The notes under the pieces are model-generated. The model was not told where the DNA came from. It made no database searches and saw only the letters and a list, made by a program, of their open reading frames with translations. From the NCBI RefSeq assembly GCF_000026545.1, contig NC_011601.1: a DNA stretch of 64,000 nucleotides; one strand, 5' to 3'. This DNA comes from Escherichia coli O127:H6 str. E2348/69 (GTDB lineage Bacteria; Pseudomonadota; Gammaproteobacteria; Enterobacterales; Enterobacteriaceae). Shown in pieces: positions 2,080 through 24,175 of this stretch. Positions within the stretch are counted from its first letter, which is position 1; every line of letters begins with the position of its first letter. A program made the position numbers and the translations under genes.

Positions 2080-2097
2080 AAGGCGCTCCTTAAACCC

Positions 2098-3177: not shown

Positions 3178-3818
3178 CCAGACCGTGTGTGAACGGACAT
3201 TGTTAGATTACGCTGAAACAGCCATTGTTCTAATTGTAACCTGACCTCTTCGCTGTAACAAATTATCCCATCCAGCAGAGAGATCGGGCAGTGTTGCCAG
3301 ATTAGCGCCTCTGCCTGATAGCGTTCAAATTTAGCCGGATCGTCTGGATCGCGGCGAAAGTCCCGTGCCTGCAAAATGGGCCAGTCGATCTGGTCCAGAC
3401 TATTCAGACTGGTGTAGTAGTTGGTCCAGTTATAGTAAGCATGGCTGTCGGTAAACACGAAGGGCACGTCGTGTGCTGCCACGTTCCGCAAGTTGCTGAC
3501 CAGAATAACGATCTCCTCATTGGGGCGTCGCTTAATGCCGCCGCGCCCGCTGTGGATGTTCATCAGCATTGGCGAGAAGGGGGTAAAATAAAACGGCACA
3601 TAGTCATGCAGTGTCCCGCCCGTTCCGACAGGTACCGGATGCCCGGCACGCTTGCCGATCAGCTCCGGGTTGCCGATATTGATCCAGTTTTCCGCCTGCA
3701 CCAGACTGTTGCCGCAGTGCAGCCCGTTATCCAGAATCCACGGGATATTGTCCCGATGGACGATACGCCAGATCAGGGCTTTTTGCGGGTTGAGGCTGGC
3801 GCTGTAGTCATAGGCCAT
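3162..3818 (-). CDS. darT: DarT toxin (DUF4433 family ssDNA thymidine ADP-ribosyltransferase)
   Basis: 218-aa ORF. I recognise DUF4433/DarT-like blocks: [36 protein letters not shown], and [10 protein letters not shown] with an ARTT-like Glu. It is paired with and overlaps a macrodomain gene. Its start is 11 nt after the hsdS stop. Confidence 0.8.
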
Positions 3819-3829
3819 AGGTTTCCCTT

Positions 3830-5197: not shown

Positions 5198-7629
5198 TCC
5201 AGCCCCATCGCCCGCAAATGCCCGGCCACTTTCTCGCTCAACGCCTCAACGGCGGCTGCAAGTGCTGGCAACGGTTCAGCATAACGCTCTTCCAGCTCCT
5301 TTACGCGCGACGCCAGTTGCTGGGTAATACGCTCTATCTCCGCTTTGATCCCTGCCTGCAATGTTGCCAGCCACTTATCCTGCACTACCAGCGTTTTAAT
5401 CGCTGCTTCATCCAGCGTGGGATAATGTTTAAATACCGCTCGATCCAACGCTTTCTGTGCGGCTTTTAGCGCTTTTTTCGCACTGGCCTCGGCCTTAATC
5501 AGCGCCAGACAGCGGTTCAGCACTGCCAGCTCATCCGGGTCGGCAGGGGTTTTCTTCAACTGTGCCAGACGGGCATTCACCAGCTTTTGCGTCACCTTAT
5601 CTTTATCGTTTTTCGCCTCAGCCAGCAGATCCTCTTCCCCTGCCTGCTCCTCGATGAATTCCACTAGCTGACGACTGGCTTCTTCACTACGCTCCTGCGC
5701 GCGGTTCAGCGCATCCAGCAGTTCCGGGAAACAGCGAATTTCCACCAGCGAACGGGGCAGCACATCGGCCTTGTAGCGCCGTTTGGTAAACTCGAAATCG
5801 TGCGTTTCTTTCCAGATGTTTTTGCCATCTTTGCCTTTCACCGGCTGAAGCTCGCGGATTTGCGCGGCGGCTTGCCAGCCATCCTGCATAATCACATACA
5901 CATCGTCCTGCATGACATCAGCCCAGTAATCCATCAGGATCTGGTACACGCTGTATTTGTTCAGCAACTCACTGTTGGCGTACTGCGCCAATAGCATTTC
6001 GCTGATATCGTGGATTAGCGCTTTGGGTTTATCTCCTTTGCGGATCTCTTCCAGACCTGCCTCTTTTACCCACGACTTAAACGGTAGCAGGCTGCGGGTG
6101 GCAAAATCCTTAAACTCCTGATGAGCCAGAATGGTCGGTTTCACCTGCTGAGCGTCCACTTGCGCCCGGCAGTAACCGGGGTGGTCGTCAGCAAACAGCA
6201 CATTACGCAGGGCAGGGAATACCCGCCAATAATCCTTCAAAGCATCTACATCGCGCACTGGAATACCGCCTTGTAAGTGCGCGGTCAGATCGTGCAAATC
6301 TTCCGGCTCTCCACTCTCGATATAACGAGGAATATTCAGGTTGTAATCATTCCCGGCGATCTCGCTGGAGGGCACCATCCGGCTGTAGCCTGGCACCGTT
6401 CGCTGATGGTTGAACACGTCCACAATACGGTGAATATCTTGGCTACGCAGGCGGTTCTTGTTGCCATCTTTGATAAAGCCCCGACTGGCGTCGATCATAA
6501 AAATGCCTTTGCGGCTGTGGGCGTGCTCTTTATCAATCACAATGATGCACGCCGGGATGCCGGTGCCGTAAAACAGGTTGGCTGGCAAACCAATAACGCC
6601 TTTGATATAGCCCTGCTTGATTAGGTTTTCACGGATATTCGCTTCGGCGTTACCGCGAAACAGTACGCCGTGGGGCAGGATTACCGCGCCTTTGCCGGTA
6701 CTTTTCAGGCTTTTAATGATATGCAACAAAAAAGCATAATCGCCGTTTTTTTCCGGCGGAATACCCCAGCCGAAGCGTTCAAACGGATCTTTTTTTGGCG
6801 TCAGCCCGTTGGTCCAGTTTTTATTGGAAAAAGGCGGGTTCGCCACGGCAAAATCGAAGGCTTTCAGTTTGCCGTTCGCCTCTTTCCACTGCGGATCGCT
6901 CAGCGTATTGCCCTGCCAGATTTTCGCGGTGGCATTGTTATGCAGAATCATGTTCATCCGCGCCAGCGCACTGGTAGCGTTATCCATCTCTTGGCCGAAA
7001 ATCGACAGTCCGCGCCGGGCTTCATCATTCACTTTCAACAGCAGCGAACCAGAGCCACAGGTTGGGTCATAAACCGTTGCATCTCGCGGCGTATCGGGAG
7101 TAATACCAATCACCTTCGCCAGAATACGTGACACCTCCGCCGGAGTGTAAAACTGTCCTTTACTCTTGCCGGATTCGGTTGCGAAGTGACGCATCAGATA
7201 TTCATAGGCATCGCCCAGCAGATCGTCGCCTTCGACCCGGTTGCTGGAGAGATCTAACCCTTCAAAGATACCGACAAGCTTGCTCAGGCGGTCAATCATT
7301 TCCTTGCCTTTGCCGAGTTTATCTTCGTCGTTAAAGTCGGCTTCGTCGATGACGCCCTTCAGGCCGTTCTCTTCCGCCAGCTTGTGGATGATTTTGTTGA
7401 TTTTATCGCCGATCTCTTTGTCATTTTTCAGCGCAACCATATCGTCAAAGCTGGCTCCTTTGGGTATCACGATCATCCCGTAAGGATCGCCTTTATACTT
7501 ATCGGAAACGTACTTCATAAACAGCAGGGTCAGTACATAGTCTTTGTACTGGCTGGCGTCCATCCCGCCACGCAGTTCGTCGCAGCTTGCCCACAGGGAA
7601 GAATAGAGTTCGGTTTTTTTGATAGCCAT
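5191..7629 (-). CDS. hsdM: Type I R-M N6-adenine DNA methyltransferase subunit (HsdM) with a long C-terminal coiled-coil extension
   Basis: 812 aa. N-terminus is HsdM_N-like (MAIKKTELYSSLWASCDELRGG). AdoMet motif I is YDPTCGSGSLL and catalytic motif IV is VANPPFSNKNW. About 330 further residues follow YNLNIPRYIE and are rich in A/E/K/L heptad-like sequence. Confidence 0.9.
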   Translation of the reverse strand: MAIKKTELYSSLWASCDELRGGMDASQYKDYVLTLLFMKYVSDKYKGDPYGMIVIPKGASFDDMVALKNDKEIGDKINKIIHKLAEENGLKGVIDEADFNDEDKLGKGKEMIDRLSKLVGIFEGLDLSSNRVEGDDLLGDAYEYLMRHFATESGKSKGQFYTPAEVSRILAKVIGITPDTPRDATVYDPTCGSGSLLLKVNDEARRGLSIFGQEMDNATSALARMNMILHNNATAKIWQGNTLSDPQWKEANGKLKAFDFAVANPPFSNKNWTNGLTPKKDPFERFGWGIPPEKNGDYAFLLHIIKSLKSTGKGAVILPHGVLFRGNAEANIRENLIKQGYIKGVIGLPANLFYGTGIPACIIVIDKEHAHSRKGIFMIDASRGFIKDGNKNRLRSQDIHRIVDVFNHQRTVPGYSRMVPSSEIAGNDYNLNIPRYIESGEPEDLHDLTAHLQGGIPVRDVDALKDYWRVFPALRNVLFADDHPGYCRAQVDAQQVKPTILAHQEFKDFATRSLLPFKSWVKEAGLEEIRKGDKPKALIHDISEMLLAQYANSELLNKYSVYQILMDYWADVMQDDVYVIMQDGWQAAAQIRELQPVKGKDGKNIWKETHDFEFTKRRYKADVLPRSLVEIRCFPELLDALNRAQERSEEASRQLVEFIEEQAGEEDLLAEAKNDKDKVTQKLVNARLAQLKKTPADPDELAVLNRCLALIKAEASAKKALKAAQKALDRAVFKHYPTLDEAAIKTLVVQDKWLATLQAGIKAEIERITQQLASRVKELEERYAEPLPALAAAVEALSEKVAGHLRAMGLEW

Positions 7630-9497: not shown

Positions 9498-9884
9498 ATG
9501 GGATTCAATGACCAGCCCAAAAACCTGAAAAAATCCATTAACGATAAATATAACAGAAGGGTAAAGTCACTTTCTCGGCATCTCGAGGATTTTATTTATC
9601 ATGCAGAAATGAAACTGGACGAATCTATTTCTGGAAGGATTTATCGCAGAAGCGAGATTGAGTCAATTGTTGAGAAAGTAAAAGAATTGATGGCTATCCT
9701 TCCGGCTTCAGATGAACCTCCTTCAATTAATTTTGATATTCTTGAAATCATTGAGAATGCAACAGAAGAAACTCAGCGCATTTTATCAGAAGGACAAAAA
9801 TTCTTCGACAACCTCTCTCCTGAAGAATTGGCAGAAATGATATCAACATTCCAACAAAATAAAAAAGATAGTGAATCTGAGTGA
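9498..9884 (+). CDS. Hypothetical acidic, helical protein (128 aa)
   Basis: Good RBS (GGGAG 7 nt upstream of the ATG). The predicted protein is Glu/Ser/Ile-rich with no motif I recognise. AT-rich codon usage matches the neighbouring ORF. Confidence 0.5.
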   Translation: MGFNDQPKNLKKSINDKYNRRVKSLSRHLEDFIYHAEMKLDESISGRIYRRSEIESIVEKVKELMAILPASDEPPSINFDILEIIENATEETQRILSEGQKFFDNLSPEELAEMISTFQQNKKDSESE

Positions 9885-10464
9885 TAACCCAGTTTAATAC
9901 GATATGAATCTAAGTCTAAACTATCAAAAAAAGCAGATAGTGAACTTAAATAGATATTATGAGAAGCTCCGAGTTTGCGTGGCTTCCTTTATCTATGTGG
10001 TCAACCTACAGACACCCAATGAAATAAATCCTTTCATTTCATTGAAGTGTTTAAATAAACTCCATCGGGAGCCTTTTTTGTTTGAAGATCTGCTCCCCGT
10101 TGATTAATACATCGTGATGTCACCAATGTCCGCTCTTGGCACTCAACTGCCATAGGCGGGCCCAAGGGCAGCTTCGAACGCAGGCTGTATGAAAACTCTG
10201 ATTGCTGATAGAAGGTCACGCGTTTTGATGACTTCTTAGAAAATTTACATAGAAAGATGATGCAGATTTTACTTAAAAGCGCAGGCGTCAGCCTCTTTTG
10301 CATTCACCTCTGAAGCTTAAACCGTTTTCACACAGTCTGAGCGAATTACAGACGCAACACTAAGTTTATTGCGCCCTTGAGCACAATCTTGACCAATGTG
10401 TAGAACTCATTGGAAAAAAAAGTGCGGAAAATAGAGAATTAACTCAAGTTTTGTTTATATAGTT

Positions 10465-10881
10465 CTAAATGAATTTATCATGCCAAAAATACGTTGCGCC
10501 AGTTACATTTTGTGCATGAACTTGCCCATATTCAAATGTAGGTTCTTTCTTCATATGTTGCGTATTCAACTCTGGTTTACTCCAATAAATCAAGTTCGCT
10601 TCAAATTCACTCAATAGTTTCTCAGCGAAATCAAAAGGCTTAATCCATTCTATTGGGATGGTTTTGCTGTTTTTTAAAAAAACAACGCAGCACAAATATA
10701 TACGCTTTGACAAATTGTCATATTTAGGATGGTGTAACTTAGTAATTGCGCTATGGCCTGAAGAAAATCGTGAGCTCTTCGATGATGTCTTGCCGATGTA
10801 AACAAGCCTTTCATTTTCATCATCTCCAACTGTAATCAAATAAATAGGATAACAAGCTAGAGGGGCCTTGATCCTACCCAC
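10465..10881 (-). pseudogene. GIY-YIG-like domain protein; its 5' end and promoter are replaced by the IS3 terminus
   Basis: PIYLITVGDDENERLVYIGKTSS resembles the GIY...YIG nuclease motif. The first 4 codons (MGRI) lie inside the IS3 inverted repeat, which starts at 10869, so the native N-terminus is lost. Confidence 0.4.
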
Positions 10882-10898
10882 GTAATATGGACACAGGC

Positions 10899-11765
10899 CT
10901 AAGCGAGGTTCTGGTTTTCAAATTGTTCCGGACTGAGGCCGCCACACCAACTGTGCCGCCGCCACCGATTGTAATCACATTCGATATAATTAAACACCGT
11001 TGCCCGCATTATTTCCCGGCTGATAAAGTGTTCTCCATGGATACATTCCACTTTCAGCGAATGAAAGAAGCTTTCCACGCAGGCATTATCGTAGCAGCAA
11101 CCTTTTGCGCTCATACTTCCACGCAGATTATGCCGCTTCAGTTGCGCCTGATAATCTGCTGAACAGTACTGGCCTCCACGGTCCGTGTGAACGATAACGT
11201 TCCGGGGCCTCTTACGCCGCCATAGCGCCATCTGCAGGGCATCGCAGGCCAGTTGCGCCGTCATGCGTGGCGACATTGACCAGCCAATAACGGCACGTGA
11301 CCACAGGTCAATGACCACTGCCAGATACAGCCAGCCTTCATCTGTACGTAAGTACGTGATGTCTCCTGCCCACTTCTGGTTCGGGCCACTGGCGTAAAAA
11401 TCCTGCTCCAACAGATTTTCTGACACAGGCAGGCCGTGTGCGCGGTAGCTGACCGGGCTGAACTTCCGGGAGGCCTTTGCCCTCAGTCCCTGATGGCGCA
11501 GGCTTGCCGCCACGGTTTTTACGTTAAAGGGGTAACCCTGAGCACGCAGTTCATCCGTCAGGCGTGGGGCACCGTAACGCTGTTTTGACCGGGTAAAAGC
11601 CGCGAGGACAACGCTGTCGCAGTGTTGGCGGAACTGCTGACGCGTGCTTATCCTTGTCCGCCGCTGACACCACGTATACCAGCCGCTGCGGGCCACCCGG
11701 AGCACGCGGCACATTGCTTTGATGCTAAACTCAGCCTGATGTTTTTCAATAAAGACATACTTCAT
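10899..11765 (-). CDS. insF: IS3 transposase OrfB (InsF)
   Basis: 288-aa ORF with an rve/DDE integrase core (WAGDITYL..., [19 protein letters not shown]). It overlaps orfA as expected for -1 frameshifting. Confidence 0.9.
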
Positions 11766-12061
11766 TTCAGGCGCTTCGCGAAGTATGTCGCGGCCTTTTG
11801 GAGGATAGCCAGCTCTTCATCCCGTTCTGCCAGCTGGCGTTTGAGACGTGCAATCTCGGTAGACATCTCCAGTTCACGTTCAGAAGACGTCTGCTGATTT
11901 TGCTGTTTACTGCGCCAGTTGTAGAGCTGTGATTCATACAGGCTGAGTTCACGGGCTGCGGCAGTAACACCGATGCGTTCAGCAAGCTTCAGGGCTTCAC
12001 TGCGAAATTCAGGCGAATGCTGTTTACGGGGTTTTTTACTGGTTGATACTGTTTTTGTCAT
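11762..12061 (-). CDS. insE: IS3 transposase OrfA (InsE)
   Basis: [40 protein letters not shown]... has an HTH plus a leucine zipper. The ORF track extends it 3 codons upstream, to 12070. Confidence 0.85.
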
Positions 12062-12127
12062 GTGAGTCACCTCTGACTGAGAGTTTACTCACTTAGCCGC
12101 GTGTCCACTATTGCTGGGTAAGATCAG

Positions 12128-12223
12128 ATATCCATTACCCGCTCGCAACTGGCAATGCTCCTCGATAAGCTGGACTGGCGTCAGCCAAAAACATCCCGCC
12201 TTAACGCACTGACAATGTTGTAA
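12128..12223 (+). pseudogene. C-terminal 31 codons of IS66 TnpB (orf2)
   Basis: My translation is ISITRSQLAMLLDKLDWRQPKTSRLNALTML*, which matches the conserved IS66 TnpB C-terminus as I remember it. It begins immediately at the IS3 end. Confidence 0.7.
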
Positions 12224-12253
12224 AAAACGCCGGGCCGGATTATAAAAACGGCC

Positions 12254-13867
12254 ATGAGTCAGAAATACCTCATTCGCATCGCTGAGCTGGAAAGGCTGCT
12301 CTCTGAGCAGGCTGAAGCCCTCCGTCAGAAAGACCAGCAACTGAGTCTGGTTGAAGAGACGGAGGCCTTCCTGCGCTCTGCACTGGCACGTGCCGAAGAA
12401 AAGATCGAAGAAGATGAGCGAGAAATAGAGCATCTGCGGGCTCAGATAGAAAAACTGCGCCGGATGCTGTTCGGAACCCGTTCTGAAAAACTGCGTCGTG
12501 AGGTTGAACAGGCTGAAGCCCTGCTGAAACAACGCGAGCAGGAAAGCGATCGTTACAGTGGGCGTGAGGATGACCCACTGGTTCCCCGCCAGTTGCGACA
12601 GTCGCGCCATCGTCGTCCGTTACCGGCACATCTCCCCCGTGAAATATACCGCCTGGAGCCTGAAGAAAGCTGTTGCCCGGAGTGTGGCGGTGAGCTGGAT
12701 TATCTGGGGGAAGTCAGCGCAGAACAACTGGAACTGGTGAGCAGCGCCCTGAAAGTGATCCGCACAGAACGGGTAAAAAAAGCCTGTACAAAATGTGACT
12801 GCATCGTTGAAGCACCGGCGCCGTCCTGCCCGATAGAGCGTGGTGTCGCGGGCCCCGGATTACTTGCCCGCGTGTTAACGGGAAAATACTGCGAACACCT
12901 GCCACTGTATCGTCAGAGTGAAATCTTTGCCCGACAGGGTGTCGAACTGAGCCGTGCATTACTCTCCAACTGGGTTGACGCGTGCTGCCAGTTAATGACG
13001 CCGCTGAATGATGCCCTGTACCGTTATGTGATGAATACCCGCAAGCTTCACACTGACGACACACCGGTAAAGGTACTGGCACCGGGCCTGAAAAAGACGA
13101 AAACAGGGCGCATCTGGACGTATGTCCGGGATGATCGCAATGCGGGTTCGTCATCTCCTCCGGCGGTCTGGTTCGCGTACTCATCGAACCGGCAGGGGAA
13201 ACACCCGGAGCAACACCTCCGCCCCTTCCGGGGTATCCTGCAGGCGGATGCGTTCACAGGTTATGACAGGCTGTTCAGTGCAGAACGTGAAGGTAGTGCG
13301 CTGACAGAAGTTGCGTGCTGGGCTCATGCCCGGAGAAAAATCCACGATGTATACATCAGCAGCAAAAGTGCGACGGCAGAAGAAGCCCTGAAGCGAATCA
13401 GTGAACTGTACGCCATCGAGGATGAAATACGGGGATTACCAGAGTCAGAGCGTCTTGCAGCCAGGCAGCAGCGAAGCAAAGCGTTACTGACGTCGCTGCA
13501 TGAATGGATGGTGGAGAAGAATGGCACGCTGTCGAAAAAATCCAGACTGGGCGAAGCGTTCAGCTATGTACTGAATCAGTGGGACGCCCTCTGTTATTAC
13601 AGTGATGACGGTCTGGCGGAGGTGGACAATAACACAGCGGAAAGAGCGCTTCGTGCAGTCTGTCTCGGAAAGAAAAATTACGTGTTCTTCGGTAGCGATC
13701 ACGGCGGCGAGCGTGGAGCACTGCTGTACGGGCTGATCGGCACCTGCCGACTGAACGGTATCGATCCGGAAGCGTATCTGCGCCATATTCTGAGCGTACT
13801 GCCGGAATGGCCCTCCAACCGTGTTGACGAACTCCTGCCATGGAACGTAGTACTCACCAATAAATAA
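12254..13867 (+). CDS. IS66-family transposase TnpC
   Basis: 537 aa. It has an N-terminal coiled coil, a CPECGGEL zinc motif, and a DDE region (HTDDTP..., LQADAFTGY, DNNTAERALR). Confidence 0.9.
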   Translation: MSQKYLIRIAELERLLSEQAEALRQKDQQLSLVEETEAFLRSALARAEEKIEEDEREIEHLRAQIEKLRRMLFGTRSEKLRREVEQAEALLKQREQESDRYSGREDDPLVPRQLRQSRHRRPLPAHLPREIYRLEPEESCCPECGGELDYLGEVSAEQLELVSSALKVIRTERVKKACTKCDCIVEAPAPSCPIERGVAGPGLLARVLTGKYCEHLPLYRQSEIFARQGVELSRALLSNWVDACCQLMTPLNDALYRYVMNTRKLHTDDTPVKVLAPGLKKTKTGRIWTYVRDDRNAGSSSPPAVWFAYSSNRQGKHPEQHLRPFRGILQADAFTGYDRLFSAEREGSALTEVACWAHARRKIHDVYISSKSATAEEALKRISELYAIEDEIRGLPESERLAARQQRSKALLTSLHEWMVEKNGTLSKKSRLGEAFSYVLNQWDALCYYSDDGLAEVDNNTAERALRAVCLGKKNYVFFGSDHGGERGALLYGLIGTCRLNGIDPEAYLRHILSVLPEWPSNRVDELLPWNVVLTNK

Positions 13868-13897
13868 GCGTCAATACGGTGTTCCGTTGACGCTTAC

Positions 13898-13934
13898 GAG
13901 AACTGTTCAGGGAGTCTGACATCAAGAGCGCGGT
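13898..13934 (-). mobile_element. IS911 remnant (end of orfA), separated from the rest by the IS30 insertion
   Basis: The minus-strand reading continues the IS911 OrfA frame across IS30: ...EILKKAT|ALLMSDSLNSS, as in IS911 OrfA from memory. The remnant abuts the IS66 terminus. Confidence 0.65.
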
Positions 13935-15046
13935 TGTAGATTCAATTGGTCAACGCAACAGTTATGTGAAAACATGGGGTTGCGGAGGTTTTTTGAATGA
14001 GACGAACATTTACAGCAGAGGAAAAAGCCTCTGTTTTTGAACTATGGAAGAACGGAACAGGCTTCAGTGAAATAGCGAATATCCTGGGTTCAAAACCCGG
14101 AACGATCTTCACTATGTTAAGGGATACTGGCGGCATAAAACCCCATGAGCGTAAGCGGGCTGTAGCTCACCTGACACTGTCTGAGCGCGAGGAGATACGA
14201 GCTGGTTTGTCAGCCAAAATGAGCATTCGTGCGATAGCTACTGCGCTGAATCGCAGTTCTTCGACGATCTCACGTGAAGTTCAGCTAATCGGGGCAGACG
14301 CTATTACAAAGCTGTTGATGCTAATAACCGAGCCAACAGAATGGCGAAAAGGCCAAAACCGTGCTTACTGGATCAAAATTTACCATGGCGAAATCTTGTT
14401 CTGGAAAAGCTGGAGATGAAATGGTCTCCAGAGCAAATATCAGGATGGTTAAGGCGAACAAAACCACGTCAAAAAACGCTGCGAATATCACCTGAGACAA
14501 TTTATAAAACGCTGTACTTTCGTAGCCGTGAAGCGCTACACCACCTGAATATACAGCATCTGCGACGGTCGCATAGCCTTCGCCATGGCAGGCGTCATAC
14601 CCGCAAAGGCGAAAGAGGTACGATTAACATAGTGAACGGAACACCAATTCACGAACGTTCCCGAAATATCGATAACAGACGCTCTCTGGGGCATTGGGAG
14701 GGCGATTTAGTCTCAGGTACAAAAAACTCTCATATAGCCACACTTGTAGACCGAAAATCACGTTATACGATCATCCTTAGACTCAGGGGCAAAGATTCTG
14801 TCTCAGTAAATCAGGCTCTTACCGATAAATTCCTGAGTTTACCGTCAGAACTCAGAAAATCACTGACATGGGACAGAGGAATGGAACTGGCCAGACATCT
14901 AGAATTTACTGTCAGCACCGGCGTTAAAGTTTACTTCTGCGATCCTCAGAGTCCTTGGCAGCGGGGAACAAATGAGAATACAAATGGGCTAATTCGGCAG
15001 TACTTGAACCGCCCCGGGTTTCCTGGAGAGTGTTTTATCTGTGAAC

Positions 15047-15937
15047 TCAGGCTGCCAGATCATCGTTTCCGATGGAAGCATAATAAGCTTTTTCTGCTTC
15101 TGCCGGAGGAGTATGGCCCAGCCTTTCCAGCAATCGTCGATTGTTATACCAGTCCACCCACGTGAGTGTGGCCAGTTCCACTTCTGCACGGTTTTTCCAG
15201 CTCTTACGGTGTATTACCTCCGCTTTGTAAAGACCATTGATGCTCTCCGCCATCGCGTTGTCATACGAGTCGCCTGTACTTCCTGTTGATGCCAGTAATC
15301 CGGCTTCCTTAAGCCGCTGTGTGTAGGCCAGCGATACATACTGAGAACCTTTATCACTGTGATGGACCGTGCCGGACGGTCGACGGGCCCATAACGCCTG
15401 CTCCAGTGCATCCAGCACGAATGTCGTCTCCATGGACGATGAGACCCGCCACCCCACAATGTATCCGGCAAACACATCAATGATGAACGCCACATAGACG
15501 AAGCCCTGCCATGTGCTGACGTAAGTAAAATCAGCCACCCACAGCTGGTCAGGTCGTTCTGCCACGAACTGACGGTTTACGCGGTCGCCTGCGGCAACGG
15601 CTTTCCGGCTGATGGTCGTACGGACCTTTTTACCCCGGAGAACACCGGCAAGTCCCATAACCGCCATGAGGCTCGCCACTGTACATCTGGCTACCCTGAT
15701 TCCTTCCCGTAACAACTGACGCCAGACTTTACGCACACCGTATACCTGATGATTCCCATCGTATACGCGCAGTATCTCTTTCTTCAGCCAGTCATCGCGC
15801 TGCGCACGGGCACTGCGTTTATCCGGATGATGTCGCTGTTGCTGACAGTGGTAATACGTTGACGGGGCAATATGTAGTTCACTGCATACCGGTCCGACCC
15901 CGTACAGCTTACGCAGCTTATCCAGCAGTGGCATCAC
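15047..15937 (-). CDS. IS629-like transposase OrfB
   Basis: 296 aa with a DDE/rve core ([29 protein letters not shown]). Confidence 0.9.
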
Positions 15938-16260
15938 TTTTTCCAGAGGCGGTCGAACTCCGCCTTCGCAAAATAAGCGGAAGCCTGGCGAAGGATATCG
16001 TTACTGCGGCGCAGTTCACGATTTTCACGTTCCAGCTCTTTCAGACGCTGACGTTCAGCGGTGGTGAGCCCGCCATCACCGCCTCCGGTATCCCGCTCAT
16101 GCTGGCGTACCCAGACACGCAGAGTCTCCGGTGTACAGCCAATCTTTGGGGCAATGGAACAAATTGCCGCCCACTGTGAGTCATATTCGCCCTGACTTTC
16201 CAGAACCATACGAATCGCCCTCTGACGGACTTCGGGGGAAAAACGAGTATTTTTAGTCAT
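15934..16260 (-). CDS. IS629-like transposase OrfA
   Basis: 108 aa, [42 protein letters not shown]..., with an HTH plus a coiled coil. It overlaps orfB. Confidence 0.9.
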
Positions 16261-16467
16261 CCTGTTTACCTCTTTCTCAGGGAGTTTAGTCTCCAGGATT
16301 CCCGGGGCGGTTCAACTTTCCTAAAAAGACATGTCTTGCCCAATATACTCAACATGAACTAGATCTGGTTGCTGCTCAGCTAAACAACAGACCGAGAAAG
16401 ACACTGAAGTTCAAAACACCGAAAGAGATAATTGAAAGGGGTGTTGCATTGACAGATTGAATCTACA

Positions 16468-16802
16468 GTAGCCTTTTTTAATATTTCATTCTCCATTTCA
16501 ATGCGTTGTAGCTTTTTCCTCAGCTCACGTATTTCGATTTGTTCTGGTGTTATCGGAGAGGCTTTTGGTGTTTTGCCCTGACGCTCATCACGCAGTTGTT
16601 TGACCCATCTTGTCATTGTGGAAAGGCCGATATCCATAGCTTTGGCGGCATCTGCCACCGTGTAGTTCTGGTCAACAACCAGTTGAGCGGATTCGCGTTT
16701 AAACTCTGCGCTGAAATTTCTTTTTTTCATTGGAGCACCTGTGTTGTTCTGAGGTGAGCATATCACCTCTGTTCAGGTGGCCAAATTCAGTGTGCCACTA
16801 CA
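16468..16802 (-). mobile_element. IS911 left-end remnant with truncated orfA (ATG at 16730)
   Basis: The terminus at 16802 reads TGTAGTGGCACACTGAATTTGGCCACC (IS911 IRL with one mismatch, from memory). OrfA is [32 protein letters not shown]... and is cut by IS30 at 16467/16468. Confidence 0.8.
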
Positions 16803-16972: not shown

Positions 16973-17844
16973 ATGAATCCGTCTGATGCCATTGAGGCAA
17001 TTGAAAAACCGCTCTCCTCCCTGCCTTACTCACTTTCCCGTCACATCCTGGAACATCTGCGCAAACTCACCAGCCACGAACCCGTGATTGGCATTATGGG
17101 AAAAGCGGGGCCGGTAAATCCTCACTCTGTAATGCGCTGTTTCAGGGAGAGGTCACCCCGGTCAGTGATGTTCACGCCGGCACCCGGGAAGTGCGGCGCT
17201 TCCGTCTGAGTGGTCACGGTCACCGCATGGTTATCACTGACCTGTCCGGGGTGGGCGAGAGCCGGGACAGGGATGCAGAGTATGAAGCCCTGTACCGTGA
17301 CATTCTGCCTGAACTTGACCTGGTACTGTGGCTGATTAAAGCCGATGACCGTGCCCTGTCTGTGGATGAGTATTTCTGGCGACACATACTGCACCGGGGA
17401 CATCAGCAGGTGCTGTTTGTGGTGACGCAGGCCGACAAAACAGAGCCCTGCCATGAATGGGATATGGCAGGTATTCAGCCTTCTCCCGCACAGGCACAGA
17501 ATATTCGCGAAAAAACGGAGGCGGTATTCCGTCTGTTCCGGCCCGTACATCCGGTTGTTGCCGTATCGGCCCGCACCGGCTGGGAACTGGATACGCTGGT
17601 CAGTGCGCTCATGACAGCGCTTCCCGACCATGCCGTCAGTCCCCTGATGACCCGCCTGCAGGACGAGCTGCGCACGGAATCTGTCCGGGGTCAGGCCCGT
17701 GAACAGTTTACCGGTGCGGTGGACCGGATATTTGACACGGCGGAGAGCGTCTGTGTTGCCTCTGTTGCCCGTACGGTTCTGCGTGCCGTCCGTGACACGG
17801 TGGTCTCTGTTGCCCGCGCTGTATGGAACTGGATTTTCTCCTGA
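16973..17844 (+). pseudogene. yeeP: YeeP/YkfA/YfjP-type island GTPase, frameshifted in the P-loop
   Basis: Two ORFs (16934..17209 and 17191..17844) together cover the family. IMGKAG then shifts frame: ggaaaagcggggccggtaaatcc lacks one G relative to GKxGAGKSS. The downstream frame reads EVRRFRLSGHGH...DLSGVGES...VVTQADK. Confidence 0.8.
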
Positions 17845-17928: not shown

Positions 17929-17998
17929 TTGCGTGACCGTCTTGCAATCAATAGAATAAAACGATCGATAAAACAAATATCGATCGTTACTATCGATC
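17929..17998 (+). promoter_or_regulatory. agn43 (flu) promoter plus the Dam/OxyR phase-variation switch with three GATC sites
   Basis: -35 is TTGCGT (17929-17934), then a 17-nt spacer, then -10 TAGAAT (17952-17957). GATC sites are at 17963, 17982 and 17995 within cGATCGATAAAACAAATATCGATCGTTACTATCGATCG. This matches the known Ag43 switch architecture. Confidence 0.75.
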
Positions 17999-18046: not shown

Positions 18047-19465
18047 ATGCAGAACGGAATTGCACACAACGGACTGATACTTCTCTGGCAGATGAGAGAG
18101 GGGAAGCATTTATGTCCGGGAAAAACCACTTTATCTGACCATGCTGTTTTGTACCTGCCGGTATCCACATTTGTGGGTACCGTCATTAATGAGAAGGGCT
18201 GGCAGGCCGTCAAATCCGGCGCAATGGCAACCGACACGGTTGTGAATACCGGCGCGGAAGGGGGACCAGATGCAGAAAATGGTGATACCGGGCAGTTTGT
18301 TCGCGGAAATGCCGTACGTACCACCATCAATAAAAATGGTCGTCAGATTGTGGCTGTTGAAGGAACAGCAAATACCACTGTGGTTTATGCCGGCGGCGAC
18401 CAGACGGTACACGGGCATGCGCTGGATACCACACTGAATGGCGGTTACCAGTATGTGCACAACGGAGGCACAGCCTCTGACACGGTTGTAAACAGTGACG
18501 GCTGGCAGATTGTCAAGGAAGGTGGTCTGGCGGATTTCACCACCGTTAACCAGAAAGGCAAACTGCAGGTGAACGCCGGTGGTACAGCCACGAATGTCAC
18601 CCTGAAGCAGGGAGGCGCACTGGTCACCAGTACGGCGGCAACCGTCACCGGCAGCAACCGTCTGGGCAATTTCACTGTGGAAAACGGTAATGCTGACGGT
18701 GTTGTTCTGGAGTCCGGTGGTCGCCTGGATGTACTGGAGGGCCATTCAGCCTGGAAAACACTGGTGGATGACGGCGGAACCCTGGCAGTGTCTGCCGGTG
18801 GTAAGGCAACAGATGTCACCATGACATCCGGTAGTGCCCTGATTGCAGACAGTGGTGCCACTGTTGAGGGGACCAATGCCAGCGGTAAGTTCAGTATTGA
18901 TGGCACATCCGGTCAGGCCAGCGGACTGCTGCTGGAAAATGGCGGCAGCTTTACGGTTAATGCCGGAGGACTGGCCAGCAACACCACTGTCGGACATCGT
19001 GGAACACTGACGCTGGCTGCCGGGGGAAGTCTGAGTGGCAGAACACAACTCAGTAAAGGCGCCAGTATGGTACTGAATGGTGATGTGGTCAGTACCGGCG
19101 ATATTGTTAACGCAGGGGAGATTCGCTTTGATAATCAGACGACACAGGATGCCGTGCTGAGCCGTGCTGTTGCAAAAGGCGACGCCCCGGTAACGTTCCA
19201 TAAACTGACCACCAATAACCTCACCGGCCAGGGCGGCACCATCAATATGCGTGTTCGCCTTGATGGCAGCAATGCCTCTGACCAGCTGGTGATTAATGGT
19301 GGTCAGGCAACCGGCAAAACCTGGCTTGCGTTCACAAATGTCGGAAACAGTAACCTCGGGGTGGCAACCACCGGACAGGGTATCCCGGAAATACGATTTC
19401 AGGAAAATTCATGCAGTAATGGGAAAGGACTCTCATTGCTGTTCACCGCAGTTCTGAATTATTGA
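18047..19465 (+). pseudogene. flu: Antigen 43 autotransporter fragment; only the passenger-domain core remains
   Basis: GTVINEKGWQAVKSGAMATDTVVNTGAEGGPDAENGDTGQFVRG... through ...INGGQATGKTWLAFTNVGNSNLGVATTGQGI is collinear with K-12 Ag43 from roughly residue 170 (from memory). There is no signal peptide. Similarity stops at ~19385, and the beta-barrel translocator is absent. Confidence 0.85.
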
Positions 19466-19479
19466 ATTTATAAAGGTGA

Positions 19480-21867
19480 ATGATGCACGAAAAGAACATC
19501 GCCCTGCTTTGTGATGAAGCCGACCGGCTTTTGCAACTGAATATCAATCTGCTCCGGCAAATGGTTGATGAGCCGGATGTGTTATCTGACAGTAAGAACG
19601 AAAACGGGCTGCTTTTTGATAAACGGAAAGCGCTGAAAAGAATTGAGGAGCTGGAGGGCGAACAAATCAAAACCGCCCGCAGGGAGATGGTGCTGGCTGT
19701 GGTCGGCACGATGAAGGCGGGCAAATCAACCACCATCAACGCCATTGTGGGGCAGGAAATTCTGCCCAACCGTAACCGCCCCATGACCTCGGTACCGACA
19801 TTGATCCGCCACGTTCCCGGAAAAACGGAACCGGTCCTCCATCTGGAACATATTCAGCCCGTCCGCAATTTATTAATCACACTGCAGGAAAAACTCGCCA
19901 CCCCGGCAGGGCAGCAAGTCGCACAGTCCCTGCAGCAAACCGGGGATACCCGCGAACTACTGGATATTCTGGCGGATGATGTCTGGCTTAAAAATGAATA
20001 CCACGGGGAAGACGAAATCTTTACCGGACTGGCATCGTTAAATGACCTGGTTCGTCTTGCTGCGGCAATGGGGACTGAATTTCCTTTTGACGAATACGCA
20101 GAAGTGCAGAAACTACCGGTGATCGACGTGGCGTTCAGCCACCTGGTGGGAATGGATGCATGTCAGGGAACACTCACACTGCTGGATACCCCCGGCCCTA
20201 ATGAAGCCGGACAACCACAGATGGAAATGATGATGCGGGATCAACTACAGAAAGCCTCTGCGGTGCTGGCGGTGATGGATTACACCCAGATGAACTCGAA
20301 AGCCGATGAGGAGGTTCGTAAAGAGCTTAATGCCATTGCTGACGTCTCAGCCGGTCGTCTGTTTGTGCTGGTCAATAAATTCGATGAAAAAGATCGCAAT
20401 GGTGATGGTGCGGATGCCGTACGCCAGAAGGTGCCAGCAATGCTGAACAGCGATGTGCTGCCCGCCTCCCGCGTTTATCCCGGCTCATCACGTCAGGCGT
20501 ACCTTGCTAACCGTGCGCTTCATGAGTTACGAAAAAACGGTGCGCTTCCGGTTGATGAAGCCTGGGTCGATGATTTTATCAGGGAAGCTTTCGGACCTAT
20601 GGTGGAAGAGGACGACTGGAAAGACAGCACTAAGGTAAATAAAAAGGCAGAAAAACTCTGGAATATATCTCTGATCGATCAACTGATAACGGAAGTCATA
20701 CAGAGCTCCCATTCCAGAGCGGCGGCACTGGCGGTTGACTCTGCCGCCGCAAAACTGATGCAGAATGCAGAAAATATCAGCGAATATCTGTCATTACGTC
20801 ATCAGGGGCTGCAGCAAAGCATTCAGTCACTACAGGCGCATATTACCAGCCTGCTGGCGGATATCCAGGAGATTGAGGAATGTCAGAATCAGGTGACCGG
20901 TGATGTCAGAATGGCCATGGAGGACATCAATACCAAAACCGGGGAATTACTGACGAAGGTCTGTGCCTCACTGGAGGAGGAGCTGAACGACTATTTCAGA
21001 AGCGGTAAACGCAAAGAACAGCAAATGCTGGAGGAAGAAAATTCAGCGCAGCCCCGGGAGAGAAACGCATTCGCTTTCTTTCACGATATTTTCGGAACCG
21101 GAAATCAGCATGACAGGATGCGGGACTTTGATCCGGACAGCCCCGAAATAAAATTCAGTGATCGCAGGGCAGCCCTTGAACTGATGACGCAAATCGAATC
21201 GACCGTGACCAGCCTGCACCGTGAGGCTGAAGCACAGTTCCGGCCTGAGCTGGAGAAAATCGTCAGCGGGATTGAAACAGGTTTTCGTGGCACGGCCCTG
21301 TACGCCACAGAAAACATTGCCGGTCGCATCAATGCCCGCCTGGAGGATGAGGGCTTTACCGTAAAAATCAGTTTTCCGGCAGTCAGCCAGTTACAGACCC
21401 GGCTCGCGGTAAAAATAAATCTGAGTGCGCTTATGGAGGAAAGAACGGAGACCGTCACCCGTCGCCGTCGGCAGAGTGGCGTATGGGGAACCGTTTGTCG
21501 ATGGTTTGGCACCAGTGACCTGGGCTGGGAAAACTATGACGAGGATGTGAGTCGCAGCGTGATCAATATCAACAAGGTCAGAGAGGAAGTTATGTCACTG
21601 ACCCGGGCATATTTCGGGGAGCTGCAGGCATCCATTGAGCAGGATATTAACCAGCCCGTCCGCCAGGAAATCGATGCCTTTTTCTGCGCATTCAGGGAGA
21701 AAGTTGAACAACTGCGTAACACGCTGATTCAGAGCTCTGAAGATCATAAACGCGATCAGCAGGCGCAGGAACGGCTTACCGGGCGACTTCAGGCATTAAA
21801 TGAAAGGGTTCCTGAGCTCATTACTGACAGTAAGGCGCTGAGGGAAGAGCTGGAGACAATGCTGTGA
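19480..21867 (+). CDS. Bacterial dynamin-like GTPase, apparently a paralogue of YjdA (CrfC/RdcA)
   Basis: 795 aa. G1 is GTMKAGKST (aa 76-84), G3 is LLDTPGPNEAG, and G4 is VLVNKFDEKD, followed by a long helical stalk. The N-terminal half aligns closely with my recollection of K-12 YjdA. The RBS AAGGTG is at 19473-19478, so the second ATG at 19483 may be the real start. Confidence 0.85.
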   Translation: MMHEKNIALLCDEADRLLQLNINLLRQMVDEPDVLSDSKNENGLLFDKRKALKRIEELEGEQIKTARREMVLAVVGTMKAGKSTTINAIVGQEILPNRNRPMTSVPTLIRHVPGKTEPVLHLEHIQPVRNLLITLQEKLATPAGQQVAQSLQQTGDTRELLDILADDVWLKNEYHGEDEIFTGLASLNDLVRLAAAMGTEFPFDEYAEVQKLPVIDVAFSHLVGMDACQGTLTLLDTPGPNEAGQPQMEMMMRDQLQKASAVLAVMDYTQMNSKADEEVRKELNAIADVSAGRLFVLVNKFDEKDRNGDGADAVRQKVPAMLNSDVLPASRVYPGSSRQAYLANRALHELRKNGALPVDEAWVDDFIREAFGPMVEEDDWKDSTKVNKKAEKLWNISLIDQLITEVIQSSHSRAAALAVDSAAAKLMQNAENISEYLSLRHQGLQQSIQSLQAHITSLLADIQEIEECQNQVTGDVRMAMEDINTKTGELLTKVCASLEEELNDYFRSGKRKEQQMLEEENSAQPRERNAFAFFHDIFGTGNQHDRMRDFDPDSPEIKFSDRRAALELMTQIESTVTSLHREAEAQFRPELEKIVSGIETGFRGTALYATENIAGRINARLEDEGFTVKISFPAVSQLQTRLAVKINLSALMEERTETVTRRRRQSGVWGTVCRWFGTSDLGWENYDEDVSRSVININKVREEVMSLTRAYFGELQASIEQDINQPVRQEIDAFFCAFREKVEQLRNTLIQSSEDHKRDQQAQERLTGRLQALNERVPELITDSKALREELETML

Positions 21868-22769
21868 CTTCACCATTTATTCAACAAATTGCTGATAACC
21901 GGGTATGTCAGGTACTCACCTGTCTTCCTGAAAAATTTGTGGTTGATTTCGCAAACGGAATCGATGTTGCACAGGAGCATATCCGCACGGCCGGAGAGCG
22001 CACGTTCTTCCGGCGTTTAAAAGAGGGGCTGACCGGCGAAGGCGCTGCACGGCAGAATGCCATCAATGCGTCGCTTGCACAGGGCGTTGAGGCGTCCCTG
22101 CGCTGGCTGACGGAGATGACAACGTCACTTGCCACCACAAACTACGCGATTACCCGGGTAAACGACAGGGTCAGTTCACTGGTCAGTGATACAGCCAGGC
22201 TGGCGCATTATTCCGCAGATACGCGGGAGCAGTTACTCACCCTGGCCGATCAGGTTCACCATAAACTGAATCATCTTGAAGAAAAACTCCACCGTGTTGA
22301 CCAGGTTCAGCGGGCGCAGTTACATCTTGAGCAGATATTCTCATGGTGGAGCGCCGGGCGATATGCGTCATTTTCCCCTGCCGGACGTTGTTATGTGGCA
22401 CTTGAAGAGCTTCGCTGGGGCGCGTTTGGTGATGTGATACGTCAGGGCGAAACAGGCCAGGTTAACCAGCTACTGGATATTCTCAGACATAAAGCATTAA
22501 CGCAGATGGCACAGGAGAGTGGCGGTAGTGCAACCGTGCGTCTGAACACTCTGGACTGGCTTGGTGGTCAGGGCCGGGAGCAGGCAGATAACGAGTGGCA
22601 TGACGCGATTAACTGGCTGGGAGACTGGTGCAGTGAAGAGCAGCATCCGGTGATCTGGTCAACCACGCAGGCTGCAGAACACTTACCGGTTCGCATGCCT
22701 CGCCTCTGCTCTGCAGAACGCCTCTCTGAAAGTATGGTCGATGAAATATTTCAGAAGGGGGCTGCATGA
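21864..22769 (+). CDS. YjcZ/RdcB-like partner protein
   Basis: 301 aa. Its GTG start overlaps the dynamin stop (GTGA). TFFRRLKEGLTGEGAARQNAINASL, a central coiled coil (LTLADQVHHKLNHLEEKLHRVDQVQRAQLHLEQI) and GRCYVALEELRWGAFGD resemble YjcZ as I recall it. This needs HMM confirmation. Confidence 0.65.
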   Translation: MTSPFIQQIADNRVCQVLTCLPEKFVVDFANGIDVAQEHIRTAGERTFFRRLKEGLTGEGAARQNAINASLAQGVEASLRWLTEMTTSLATTNYAITRVNDRVSSLVSDTARLAHYSADTREQLLTLADQVHHKLNHLEEKLHRVDQVQRAQLHLEQIFSWWSAGRYASFSPAGRCYVALEELRWGAFGDVIRQGETGQVNQLLDILRHKALTQMAQESGGSATVRLNTLDWLGGQGREQADNEWHDAINWLGDWCSEEQHPVIWSTTQAAEHLPVRMPRLCSAERLSESMVDEIFQKGAA

Positions 22770-23836
22770 GTACAGAAATGAAAACGGGGCTGGTGCTGTC
22801 CGGTGGCGGGGCGGTGGGCGCTTATCAGGCGGGAGTGGTTAAGGCACTGGCAGAGTGTGGTACACAGATCAGCATGGTTTCAGGGACCAGCATTGGCGCA
22901 TTCAATGGTGCCATTATCGCGGCCTCTCCCGATCTGTCAGAAGCTGCCGTACGCCTGGAGGCGCTCTGGGAGCATCTGGGGAATAATCAGGTGCTGTCGG
23001 TAAACAGATTGGTTTACTTTTCATTGCTGAAAAAATTGTTCCAGGCAATGAACCTCTGCCAGATCCCCGGACGTGCAGGAGCACTGCTTACGACGCTTCT
23101 TCGCCATATATCGACAATCAACGGGTTTGACAATCTGATGGCTCAGCCGTTGTTGTCAGATGAGCCCCTGACAGCGCTGATGGATCATTATCTTGATACT
23201 GATGCTCTGGCAGACGGGCTACCGCTGTATGTGTCGCTGTACCCCACAGAAGGGGGCATGCAGGATATTATTGACTGCATTCGTGCTGAACTGGGTGTCG
23301 GAACCACGAAAAACGCCGTTTTTCAGCATATCCAGAGCCTGCCCCGCGGACAGCAGAAAGAGGCTCTGCTTGCGTCAGCCGCGCTGCCCCTGCTGTTCCG
23401 TCCCCGTGAGGTTCAGGGGACAATGTTCGGTGATGGTGGTATGGGAGGATGGCGAAATATGCAGGGAAATACCCCTGTGACGCCTCTGGTCGATACCGGA
23501 TGCAATATGGTGATTGTGACGCATCTGAGTGACGGTTTTTTATGGGATCGCAAGGCTTTTCCGGACACCACAATCCTTGAGATCCGTCCCCGGAAAAGGC
23601 TGAAATATGCAGGTGATGGTGGCAACAGCGGCGGTCTGCTCAGTTTTACATCGGCACATACCGACGCCTGGCGTCAGCAGGGCTATGAAGACACGATGCT
23701 GGCGATGGAGCATATCCGGAAACCGCTGGCAGCACGTCAGGCACTGACCCGGTCAGAGGCGGTATTGCAGAAAAGCCTGGATATAACGGAAGAGGCAGAT
23801 TTGGCACTGAGAAACGCGATGGCCCGGATTAAATAA
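22766..23836 (+). CDS. Patatin-like phospholipase
   Basis: 356 aa. Its ATG overlaps the upstream stop (ATGA). The oxyanion motif is LSGGGAVGAY, the nucleophile elbow is GTSIG (Ser42, codon 22889-22891), and the catalytic Asp is in FGDGGMGG (about residue 223). Confidence 0.85.
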   Translation: MSTEMKTGLVLSGGGAVGAYQAGVVKALAECGTQISMVSGTSIGAFNGAIIAASPDLSEAAVRLEALWEHLGNNQVLSVNRLVYFSLLKKLFQAMNLCQIPGRAGALLTTLLRHISTINGFDNLMAQPLLSDEPLTALMDHYLDTDALADGLPLYVSLYPTEGGMQDIIDCIRAELGVGTTKNAVFQHIQSLPRGQQKEALLASAALPLLFRPREVQGTMFGDGGMGGWRNMQGNTPVTPLVDTGCNMVIVTHLSDGFLWDRKAFPDTTILEIRPRKRLKYAGDGGNSGGLLSFTSAHTDAWRQQGYEDTMLAMEHIRKPLAARQALTRSEAVLQKSLDITEEADLALRNAMARIK

Positions 23837-23850
23837 AGACGCCCCAAAGA

Positions 23851-23878
23851 AACGCCACCGCCTGTGGTGGTGTTTTTC
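23851..23878 (+). terminator. Rho-independent terminator of the dynamin/patatin operon
   Basis: aacgccacc-gcctgt-ggtggtgtt is a hairpin with a ~9-bp stem including one G-U pair; its 3' arm runs into a T-run. It lies 15 nt after the stop codon. Confidence 0.65.
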
Positions 23879-24175
23879 CTGTCTGGTGTTATTGAAAATA
23901 TTTTCAGATATATATTATCTGGGTGATGGTTAAGATGAATTTATTTAATTTTGGGGGAAGATACAAAAACAACCAGTGAACATATTTCCGGCGGGTTATC
24001 CGCAATGCTGAAGGTCCGTTGCACTGGCGATGCCGGAATACAGCTTAATACGTGGTTCGCCAGTGAAGGGCTTCTCAGACAATAAACCTCATTCATTTCA
24101 CCCATCAGGCCGCGTCTTCTCCGGGAGACGCGGCTTTTTCATTTATATCGCTTAATCATTCATAAGGAGCAAATC

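Follow-up and report, generated by a model that had tools for sequence, protein, structure and literature searches.

What do relatives of RdcA and RdcB do when they are encoded directly upstream of a phospholipase? This question is raised by three plus-strand genes (19480-23836) on an island of Escherichia coli O127:H6 str. E2348/69, located within the 64,000-nt stretch of contig NC_011601.1 that was analysed here and is referred to as the window. The genes encode a dynamin-family GTPase, an RdcB/YjcZ-family protein and a patatin-like phospholipase. RdcA is a GTP/(p)ppGpp-sensing trigger enzyme, whose C-terminal domain binds and activates the MASE1 protein DgcE and whose G domain provides GTP/(p)ppGpp-dependent control (PMC13463826). 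RdcB is needed for productive RdcA assemblies (PMC13463826; PMC6510439). The trio is a self-contained, horizontally mobile three-gene operon, as seen directly in its gene content, motifs, co-inheritance and mobility. With a probability of roughly one half, it is a nucleotide-gated GTPase switch that would license a membrane lipase in a conflict or abortive anti-phage system. In this assignment, the switch behaviour is derived from homology to RdcA/RdcB, and lipase activation and defence from precedent and context.

Gene 1 (19480-21867, 795 aa), gene 2 (21864-22769, 301 aa, GTG start) and gene 3 (22766-23836, 356 aa) were taken from the open reading frame (ORF) list. They are translationally coupled through start/stop overlaps of 4 nt each, GTGA at 21864-21867 (genes 1/2) and ATGA at 22766-22769 (genes 2/3). 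Two in-frame ATGs lie within 19480-19485 at the start of gene 1. Conservation across other alleles and the RefSeq annotation (794 aa), which was mapped via locus L001 (window coordinate = L001 coordinate - 621), favour the ATG at 19483; a Shine-Dalgarno-like AAGGTG on the plus strand (19473-19478) is located 4 nt from it. With this start, the P-loop lysine is Lys81 in RefSeq numbering (Lys82 when counted from 19480). A terminator scan placed an intrinsic terminator-like hairpin with a T run on the plus strand 3' of the operon (23856-23878, stem 23856-23872). Homology of other alleles to the E2348/69 module begins at 19479 and ends at ~23921-23926.

The first gene product is a member of the dynamin family (Pfam Dynamin_N, 8.6e-19) with the motifs GTMKAGKST at residues 76-84 (Lys82), DTPG at 236 and NKFD at 299, numbered from 19480. 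G1, Thr103 (G2), G3 and G4 are invariant in 35 of 35 two-gene-type homologues and in all but one of 39 trio-type homologues. Alignment with K-12 RdcA covers the protein from end to end (33% identity, 764 aa aligned, E 5e-124), and the NCBIfam CrfC/RdcA equivalog model NF007368 is matched over the full length with 567.8 bits, short of the cutoff of 1146. Identity to RdcA is unevenly distributed, reaching 44.6% for the G domain and the proximal helices (residues 1-450) but only 18.3% for residues 451-795, with 63 gap columns. A C-terminal half that is this different from RdcA is compatible with a different target. Residues ~501-550 (window ~20980-21130) are kept in trio-type GTPases and gapped at 48% of positions in the two-gene RdcA class; they are a candidate lipase-specific surface. 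No transmembrane (TM) segment was found in gene 1 (maximum KD19 1.16, no strongly hydrophobic stretch).

Gene 2 belongs to the YjcZ family (PF13990, 2.8e-70), is 30% identical to K-12 RdcB over 281 aa (E 2e-38) and is named 'diguanylate cyclase regulator RdcB family' in RefSeq. This family is small, with 329 clusters at 50% identity among 1.84 billion representatives. The AlphaFold2 (AF2) model of gene 2 (predicted local distance difference test, pLDDT, 75) is all-alpha and contains a 105-residue helix at 59-163. Compared with PDB folds, it gave nothing below E = 0.6, and the RdcB-like fold therefore yields no functional lead. A search of gene 2 against PADLOC returned no match, and no TM segment was found in it. 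As in the K-12 RdcA-RdcB-DgcE system, a dynamin GTPase with identical G motifs and Thr103 is directly followed, with a 4-nt overlap, by a YjcZ-family partner, and both proteins are soluble. By sequence comparison, genes 1 and 2 are RdcA/RdcB paralogues and not equivalogs; the uneven identity between the halves of gene 1 and RdcA indicates a conserved switch and a diverged output surface.

Gene 3 contains a patatin domain (Pfam Patatin, 7.9e-25) with the oxyanion motif GGGAVG at residues 13-18, GTSIG at 40-44 (nucleophile Ser42) and FGDGG at 221-225 (Asp223). The oxyanion SGGGxxG, GxS42xG and D223GG are invariant in 46 of 46 patatin homologues. Its AF2 model (pLDDT 76.6) shows a patatin fold and a single C-terminal helix of 60 residues (296-355). 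A Foldseek comparison with the PDB returned PlpD (2.2e-11), the solved structure that also comes closest in sequence, followed by CapV, CapE, VipD and ExoU, all with probability 1.00. Neither a TM segment nor a secretion signal was found in any of the three proteins. Gene 3 is, to judge from these features, a catalytically intact patatin that is predicted to be cytosolic. The overlaps, the AAGGTG, a terminator at 23851-23878, the dynamin motifs, the alignment of gene 1 with YjdA (CrfC/RdcA), the resemblance of gene 2 to YjcZ/RdcB and the full catalytic set of gene 3 had all been described in a first-pass annotation made from the sequence alone, and each of them was recovered.

A pattern scan with one genome per species located RdcB relatives at 170 loci, of which the best 80 were kept. 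These were sorted by comparing the three window proteins with ORFs from all six frames, the longest ORF being taken as the gene. The synteny anticipated for the trio was found: the order dynamin-RdcB-patatin is identical in 45 of the 80 loci, each representing a different species, and most junctions are at -4 nt. The 45 loci belong to Gamma- and Betaproteobacteria, apart from a few other MAGs. The other 35 are two-gene rdcAB loci, all from Enterobacteriaceae except for one contig deposited as Vagococcus. Hosts of the trio include E. albertii, Pantoea, Erwinia, Budvicia, Serratia, many Pseudomonas, Psychrobacter, Allochromatium, Thiodictyon, Thiorhodospira, Nitrosomonas, Gallionella, Sideroxydans, Comamonadaceae, Aquaspirillum and Marinospirillum as well as a few metagenome-assembled genomes (MAGs) of Synergistaceae and Spirochaetales. 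The distance matrices of the three trio proteins correlate with pairwise r = 0.84-0.90 (r = 0.90 for patatin and RdcB), the permutation maximum being 0.18, and the three genes have therefore travelled together. RdcB relatives at only 25-28% identity are still preceded by a dynamin gene and followed by a trio-type patatin gene.

The genomic neighborhood of the trio is not conserved. No flanking family is common to more than 6-7 of the 45 trio loci, whereas the top families flanking rdcAB, which include YjdM, KdgT and ProP homologues, are common to 28, 24 and 23 of 35 loci. The trio is encoded on mobile islands (a tRNA-Ser island in the window) and plasmids, in contrast to rdcAB at its fixed yjdM-proP locus. 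Among complete E. coli genomes, 2441 of 5426 (~45%) carry the trio, in up to 5 places per genome; carriers include enteropathogenic E. coli (EPEC), O157:H7, uropathogenic E. coli and Nissle 1917. The canonical order in E. coli is a YeeP-like GTPase gene, 212 nt, the trio, two hypothetical genes, DUF932, antirestriction, YeeS, YeeT and CbeA/CbtA, with the trio at the tRNA-proximal end of CP4-44/CP4-57-like islands that occupy several integration sites. The two hypothetical genes (~225 and ~136 aa; L003 16501-17604, L084 19513-20622) match neither Pfam nor PADLOC. A trio variant with an RdcB-like protein of 62% identity is found between insertion sequence (IS) elements on ~25 IncF plasmids of Klebsiella, Enterobacter and E. 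coli. In plasmid trios of Klebsiella and Enterobacter, the 5' end of the dynamin gene is clipped by IS1/IS5 (743-773 aa), and the RdcB-like and patatin genes are intact (L086 6773-9004; L087 6683-9004). A tblastn search of the INPHARED phage genomes with gene 2 found no copy; within that collection the module is therefore not carried by phages.

The phylogeny of the family suggests how the two arrangements are related. The two-gene clade is monophyletic. When four divergent patatin-linked members were included, it was nested within patatin-linked lineages in 100 of 100 bootstrap neighbor-joining trees (midpoint rooting). Basal two-gene members retain a WYL regulator that is also found beside trios (L041, L045, L046). 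Because the two-gene clade is nested in family-wide patatin-linked diversity, rdcAB likely arose, by parsimony, from the trio through loss of the lipase, as a single patatin-less Enterobacteriaceae clade. The first-pass annotation had read the locus the other way round, as a mobile RdcAB copy re-wired from a cyclase to a lipase, a polarity that is likely backwards. An alternative effector replacing the patatin in the two-gene loci was sought and rejected, the downstream genes being unrelated housekeeping or two-partner-secretion genes. P0353, which resembles a Dynamin_N and YjcZ fusion, is merely a deletion inside core rdcAB.

The genes beside the trio also differ from those beside rdcAB in their content of defence families. 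Among 124 nearest neighbours of dereplicated trios, 157 PADLOC families were matched at E<=1e-10, among them WYL (x8), JukA (x4), JukB (x2), type I, III and IIG restriction-modification (R-M), DruE, DrmD/DpdE-like helicases, PDC-S01, PDC-S24 and PDC-M27. The 129 nearest neighbours of rdcAB matched only 4 families at the same threshold. In an approximate tally, ~25 of the 124 trio neighbours and 6 of the 129 rdcAB neighbours match defence genes (Fisher p ~2e-4). WYL/WCX regulators are encoded upstream on the same strand in seven trio loci (L010, L011, L015, L018, L020, L030, L033) and may be the native regulators of the module outside E. coli. This class of regulators includes the defence regulators BrxR and CapW.

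JukA (JukA/YaaW) is a validated jumbo-phage sensor that is paired with variable effectors and is reported in fusions to patatin, a Ras-like GTPase and a coiled-coil domain of unknown function (bioRxiv 10.1101/2022.09.17.508391). In five trio loci (L005, L006, L007, L019, L042), JukA is encoded on the same strand 3-58 nt 3' of the patatin gene, and JukB comes next in three of them. JukA(/JukB) is located at 10034-11793 in L005, 10004-11781 in L007, 9957-10724 in L019 and 9993-10727 in L042, with JukB in Pantoea and Erwinia. These arrangements could represent a neighbouring Juk system or a four- to five-gene unit. In the metagenomic protein P0320 (L089 6001-8630), a full-length JukA (PADLOC 8e-74) is fused to a complete RdcB-like domain; a trio-type patatin gene follows with a 4-nt overlap, and no dynamin gene is present at the locus. 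A related genome encodes at the same site (L097 5001-10687) a JukA with a different C-terminal domain, followed by proteins of 529 and 268 aa and an AAA ATPase. The fusion suggests that RdcB and patatin may form an effector cassette usable by different sensors. Unlike these loci, neither the window nor the E. coli trio islands contain a JukA (YaaW/DUF3944) gene, and the trio is not described in the Juk work.

Under the favoured reading, the RdcA-like GTPase would act as a nucleotide-gated switch by analogy with RdcA, which is held off by GTP and moves to the membrane once GTP drops or (p)ppGpp accumulates. GTP sensing by gene 1 is carried over from this paralogue. The RdcB-like helical protein would serve as an assembly adaptor, and the output would be the cis-encoded patatin phospholipase instead of a diguanylate cyclase. 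An infection that perturbs the nucleotide pool or the membrane would bring the GTPase-adaptor complex to the inner membrane, where it would license the lipase and lead to phospholipid hydrolysis. The logic of a GTPase trigger enzyme and an adaptor steering a partner enzyme at the membrane is likely shared with RdcA-RdcB-DgcE; the trio differs in its third, co-evolving patatin gene. The reading is supported by the closest folds to gene 3, which are cofactor-activated lipases: CapV/CapE are activated by a nucleotide and VipD by the GTPase Rab5.

The lipases among these relatives differ from gene 3 in several respects. CapV/CapE of the cyclic oligonucleotide-based antiphage signalling system (CBASS) are membrane-destroying effectors and, like gene 3, cytosolic patatins with a Ser-Asp dyad. 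In contrast to CBASS, no CD-NTase or cyclic-nucleotide signalling gene is found beside the trio, identity to CapV/CapE is 13-15%, gene 3 scores only 22.5 bits against the CBASS_lipase cutoff of 200 and carries the distinct 60-residue C-terminal helix, and the activator would be a protein complex instead of a nucleotide. Legionella VipD (with Rab5) and Pseudomonas ExoU (with ubiquitin) share the patatin fold and are inactive until a protein cofactor binds, which is a GTPase in the case of VipD. They are secreted, host-activated virulence effectors with extra domains, whereas the trio lipase and its GTPase are both bacterial and predicted to be cytoplasmic.

Bacterial dynamin-superfamily GTPases in a defence-island context are also known from Eleos (formerly 'Dynamins'; LeoA and LeoBC) and from B. 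subtilis DynA. Gene 1 is remotely similar to LeoBC (PADLOC 1.6e-5; 26-29% identity to a LeoBC-annotated reference in the DefensePredictor supplement). However, the trio has no LeoA, its partners are RdcB-like and patatin proteins, the PADLOC system models are not reached, and the hydropathy of gene 1 gave no sign of a membrane paddle or TM segment. The locus is not an RdcAB equivalog, Eleos, CBASS or Juk, but a previously flagged system without a name, whose anatomy is a variation on the pairing of a sensor with a patatin effector.

In E. coli, the 212 nt that precede the canonical trio resemble a known regulatory region. They contain AATAGAAT followed by three GATC sites, in register with the regulatory region of K-12 flu (agn43). 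At agn43, the repressor OxyR is blocked once Dam has methylated the GATCs, and heritable ON/OFF phase variation results (PMC3764049). In the window, sequence pattern and alignment locate the corresponding block on the plus strand at 17950-17998, with a -10-like TAGAAT at 17952-17957 and GATC at 17963, 17982 and 17995. The K-12 flu region and the upstream regions of 8 other trios match this block in register, and the three GATCs are conserved in 8 of 8 sampled alleles, except for one GATA variant. Similar blocks are located at ~11905-11960 in L003 and ~5500-5555 in L004, and also in L100-L103. Of 5426 complete E. coli genomes, 1979 contain the junction of block and dynamin gene, corresponding to ~81% of the trio carriers.

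The block at 17950-17998 is a putative Dam/OxyR phase switch and likely the promoter for an Ag43 remnant, which lies between it and the trio in the window, and for the trio itself. In most E. coli carriers, the trio is probably phase-variable through such a switch. Since the trio stands directly behind an agn43-type switch in most E. coli, trio and flu are alternative cargos of one promoter slot that is probably phase-variable, and both are concatenated in E2348/69. In E. coli, the trio occupies the cargo slot of CP4-44/CP4-57-like tRNA-associated islands and would be expressed bistably. Its predicted cytoplasmic GTPase-lipase products differ from the autotransporter encoded by flu, and its position behind the switch differs from the regulation of rdcAB, which belongs to the FlhDC/FliA regulon. 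The agn43-type switch, the recurrent WYL and JukA neighbours and the JukA-RdcB fusion are new in this analysis.

Homologous 'dynamin family / RdcB family / phospholipase' operons were described on two islands of the commensal E. coli MP1 (PMC12922286, 2026). [quoted passage not shown] Phase variation is not mentioned in PMC12922286, and the clone-to-clone phase state may be an alternative explanation of the 'induction' in Kapi1 lysogens. Differences of this kind between clones call for caution in transcriptomics, as they may reflect phase state and not regulation. The trio genes are also listed as island cargo (PMC13182975). In the DefensePredictor supplement, two E. coli entries labelled 'dynamin family protein' are classed as predicted novel defence genes: WP_000544634.1 (794 aa) with a mean log-odds of 7.70 and WP_000544741.1 (798 aa) with 6.71. 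The latter is located at 4819-7215 with the operon anchor at 2850, a spacing of 1071 + 906 nt with two 4-nt overlaps, and therefore belongs to a trio.

Several points weigh against a defence function. The only characterised relatives, RdcA/RdcB, are involved in signalling and not in defence. In E. coli, the surroundings of the trio are largely island backbone (YeeP-like GTPase, DUF932, antirestriction, CbtA/CbeA) and do not in every case form a defence cluster; hitch-hiking may therefore account for its prevalence. The Ag43-type switch could equally indicate a surface or biofilm lifestyle function, and the E2348/69 copy may be silent, its native upstream region having been replaced by the Ag43 remnant. 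The tally of defence neighbours was taken from family lists, not from per-protein tables, and is based on crude longest-ORF calls. P0320 is a singleton among 57 matches in 5.8 billion sequences, and the JukA-RdcB fusion is therefore a lead, not a pattern. The word 'dynamin' is absent from the DefensePredictor file of tested systems, and the literature on the trio yielded descriptive mentions and a machine-learning prediction, but no functional study. Profile matches to named systems comprise weak LeoBC, weak CBASS-lipase and sub-threshold CrfC matches, and no named system in PADLOC 2.0 or NCBIfam 20 is matched. In this sense the first-pass annotation, which did not recognise the trio as a named system, was right, although the operon had already appeared in PMC12922286 and among the DefensePredictor predictions.

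The main rival is physiological lipid remodelling linked to the Ag43 lifestyle switch, which is possible, if doubtful. Through sensing by the RdcA-like/RdcB-like pair, falling GTP or rising (p)ppGpp at entry to stationary phase or starvation would cause the patatin to remodel or recycle membrane lipids, with roles in lysophospholipid signalling, vesiculation or lifestyle switching, co-regulated in E. coli with Ag43 aggregation. RdcA/RdcB are growth-phase GTP sensors that control the biofilm matrix, the agn43-type switch lies directly upstream of the trio in the 1979 genomes, one trio (L037) is located between two GGDEF genes, and no defence phenotype has been published; all this would fit such a role. 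A housekeeping lipid function is, however, not expected to be patchy, multi-copy and plasmid- or island-borne without conserved flanks. Compared with the rdcAB control, the neighbours of the trio are enriched in WYL regulators and defence genes, which likewise speaks against it, and the JukA linkage points to defence instead.

The second rival, which is unlikely, concerns the individual copy and not the family: in E2348/69 (and O157:H7), the trio would be a silent or decaying cargo remnant, whatever the family does. The Ag43/AIDA-repeat remnant ORF (18047-19465, plus strand) is an internal flu-like passenger fragment that ends 15 nt before gene 1 and is labelled in RefSeq as 'AIDA repeat-containing protein, missing N- and C-terminus'. 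Positions 18176-18785 of the window are 84% identical to nt 496-1105 of K-12 flu. The remnant displaces the switch to 1.5 kb upstream of the trio, and homology to the canonical alleles breaks exactly where the remnant joins, at 19479, a single base ahead of the first ATG. Joining of the Ag43 fragment at the start codon removed the native promoter region of 212 nt, so that the E2348/69 (and O157:H7) copy may go unexpressed. The surroundings also show decay, with a frameshifted YeeP-like gene, an Ag43 gene truncated at both ends and IS debris upstream. In some other E. coli genomes, the trio itself carries IS insertions, internal stops or truncations (rows H7, H16, H24, H28; L102), which suggests occasional inactivation, possibly because the trio is costly.

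Yet in E2348/69 the three ORFs are intact and the catalytic residues are those that are invariant in the family, and the identical junction of remnant and trio is kept at 99.8% identity in the O157:H7 and O111 lineages. The terminator scan found no terminator-like site on the plus strand between the switch and gene 1; with the switch upstream, read-through transcription is therefore plausible. The trio had been placed by the first-pass annotation in the deleted 3' half of flu. An Ag43 remnant does adjoin it, but lacks both termini, and the slot shared with flu goes beyond a deletion accident.

An accessory cyclic di-GMP regulator, in which the island paralogues act on DgcE or another MASE1/GGDEF protein and the patatin is a passenger or modulator, is less probable still. 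Family membership would allow this, given the YjcZ and full-length CrfC/RdcA model matches, the G domain close to that of RdcA and the RefSeq name of gene 2. However, it is the DgcE-binding C-terminal domain of RdcA that is so poorly matched and gapped in gene 1, whose NCBIfam score is half of the equivalog cutoff. In addition, the trio is found in many taxa always with the patatin, which co-evolves with RdcB. GGDEF genes are neighbours in only 1 of 39 dereplicated loci, the Proteobacteria MAG locus L037, where they lie on both sides of the trio (3009-4223, 9632-10768); this is the only hint of a cyclic di-GMP link among the patatin-carrying loci.

Least probable is a function in vesiculation or toxin release, as for LeoABC, or in EPEC virulence, as a host-directed lipase of the ExoU/VipD type: the weak LeoBC match, VipD and ExoU among the structural neighbours of gene 3 and the pathogenic host E2348/69 are set against the missing LeoA partner, the lack of secretion signals, TM segments and adjacent secretion genes, and the frequency of the trio in commensals (Nissle) and free-living Pseudomonas, Gallionella, Nitrosomonas and Allochromatium. 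A lipase delivered by a type III or type VI secretion system was rejected because signals, TM segments and secretion genes are lacking and free-living bacteria carry the trio.

The favoured reading, a GTPase switch that licenses a lipase in defence, can be extended, though only tentatively. The trio would then be a mobile module of ancient origin, serving immunity or suicide, that senses infection or a collapse of the nucleotide pool, and RdcA/RdcB its domesticated, lipase-less descendant. In E. coli it would be bistable via the Ag43-type switch, so that only a subpopulation is armed, and RdcB-patatin would be a portable cassette for sensors such as JukA. If true, a dynamin-family GTPase that reads the GTP/(p)ppGpp state or the membrane would join bacterial immunity, coupled to a well-understood killing effector, and the RdcA/RdcB-DgcE pathway would originate from a domesticated mobile conflict module. 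The trio would also offer a natural system with an enzymatic read-out for studying the role of RdcB. A phase-variable membrane lipase in nearly half of the complete E. coli genomes would be relevant to phage therapy, probiotic engineering and population heterogeneity.

The E2348/69 island is a mosaic. Upstream of the switch, RefSeq annotates the YeeP-like gene as a frameshifted pseudogene of a 50S-binding-type GTPase (16973-17844, plus strand; L001 17594-18465). It belongs to the backbone of this island family; its homologues include K-12 yeeP and, in Nissle and E. albertii, the gene that precedes the trio. The two hypothetical genes that follow canonical trios are absent from E2348/69, where homology resumes at 24031 in the DUF932 region. 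Fragments of IS3, IS66/ISEc47 and IS30 lie at ~10900-16730, between the YeeP-like gene and a type I R-M operon (1-7629), in which a DarT/DarG pair is inserted between hsdR and hsdS, 12-19 kb upstream of the trio. The RefSeq annotation of the window, comprising type I R-M with DarTG, the Ag43 remnant, CbtA/CbeA, tRNA-Ser and a nearby csg locus, agrees with the island content given in the first-pass annotation. The proximity of csg, an output of the DgcE pathway, had been regarded there as a coincidence, and csg indeed represents the chromosomal flank of the tRNA-Ser integration site.

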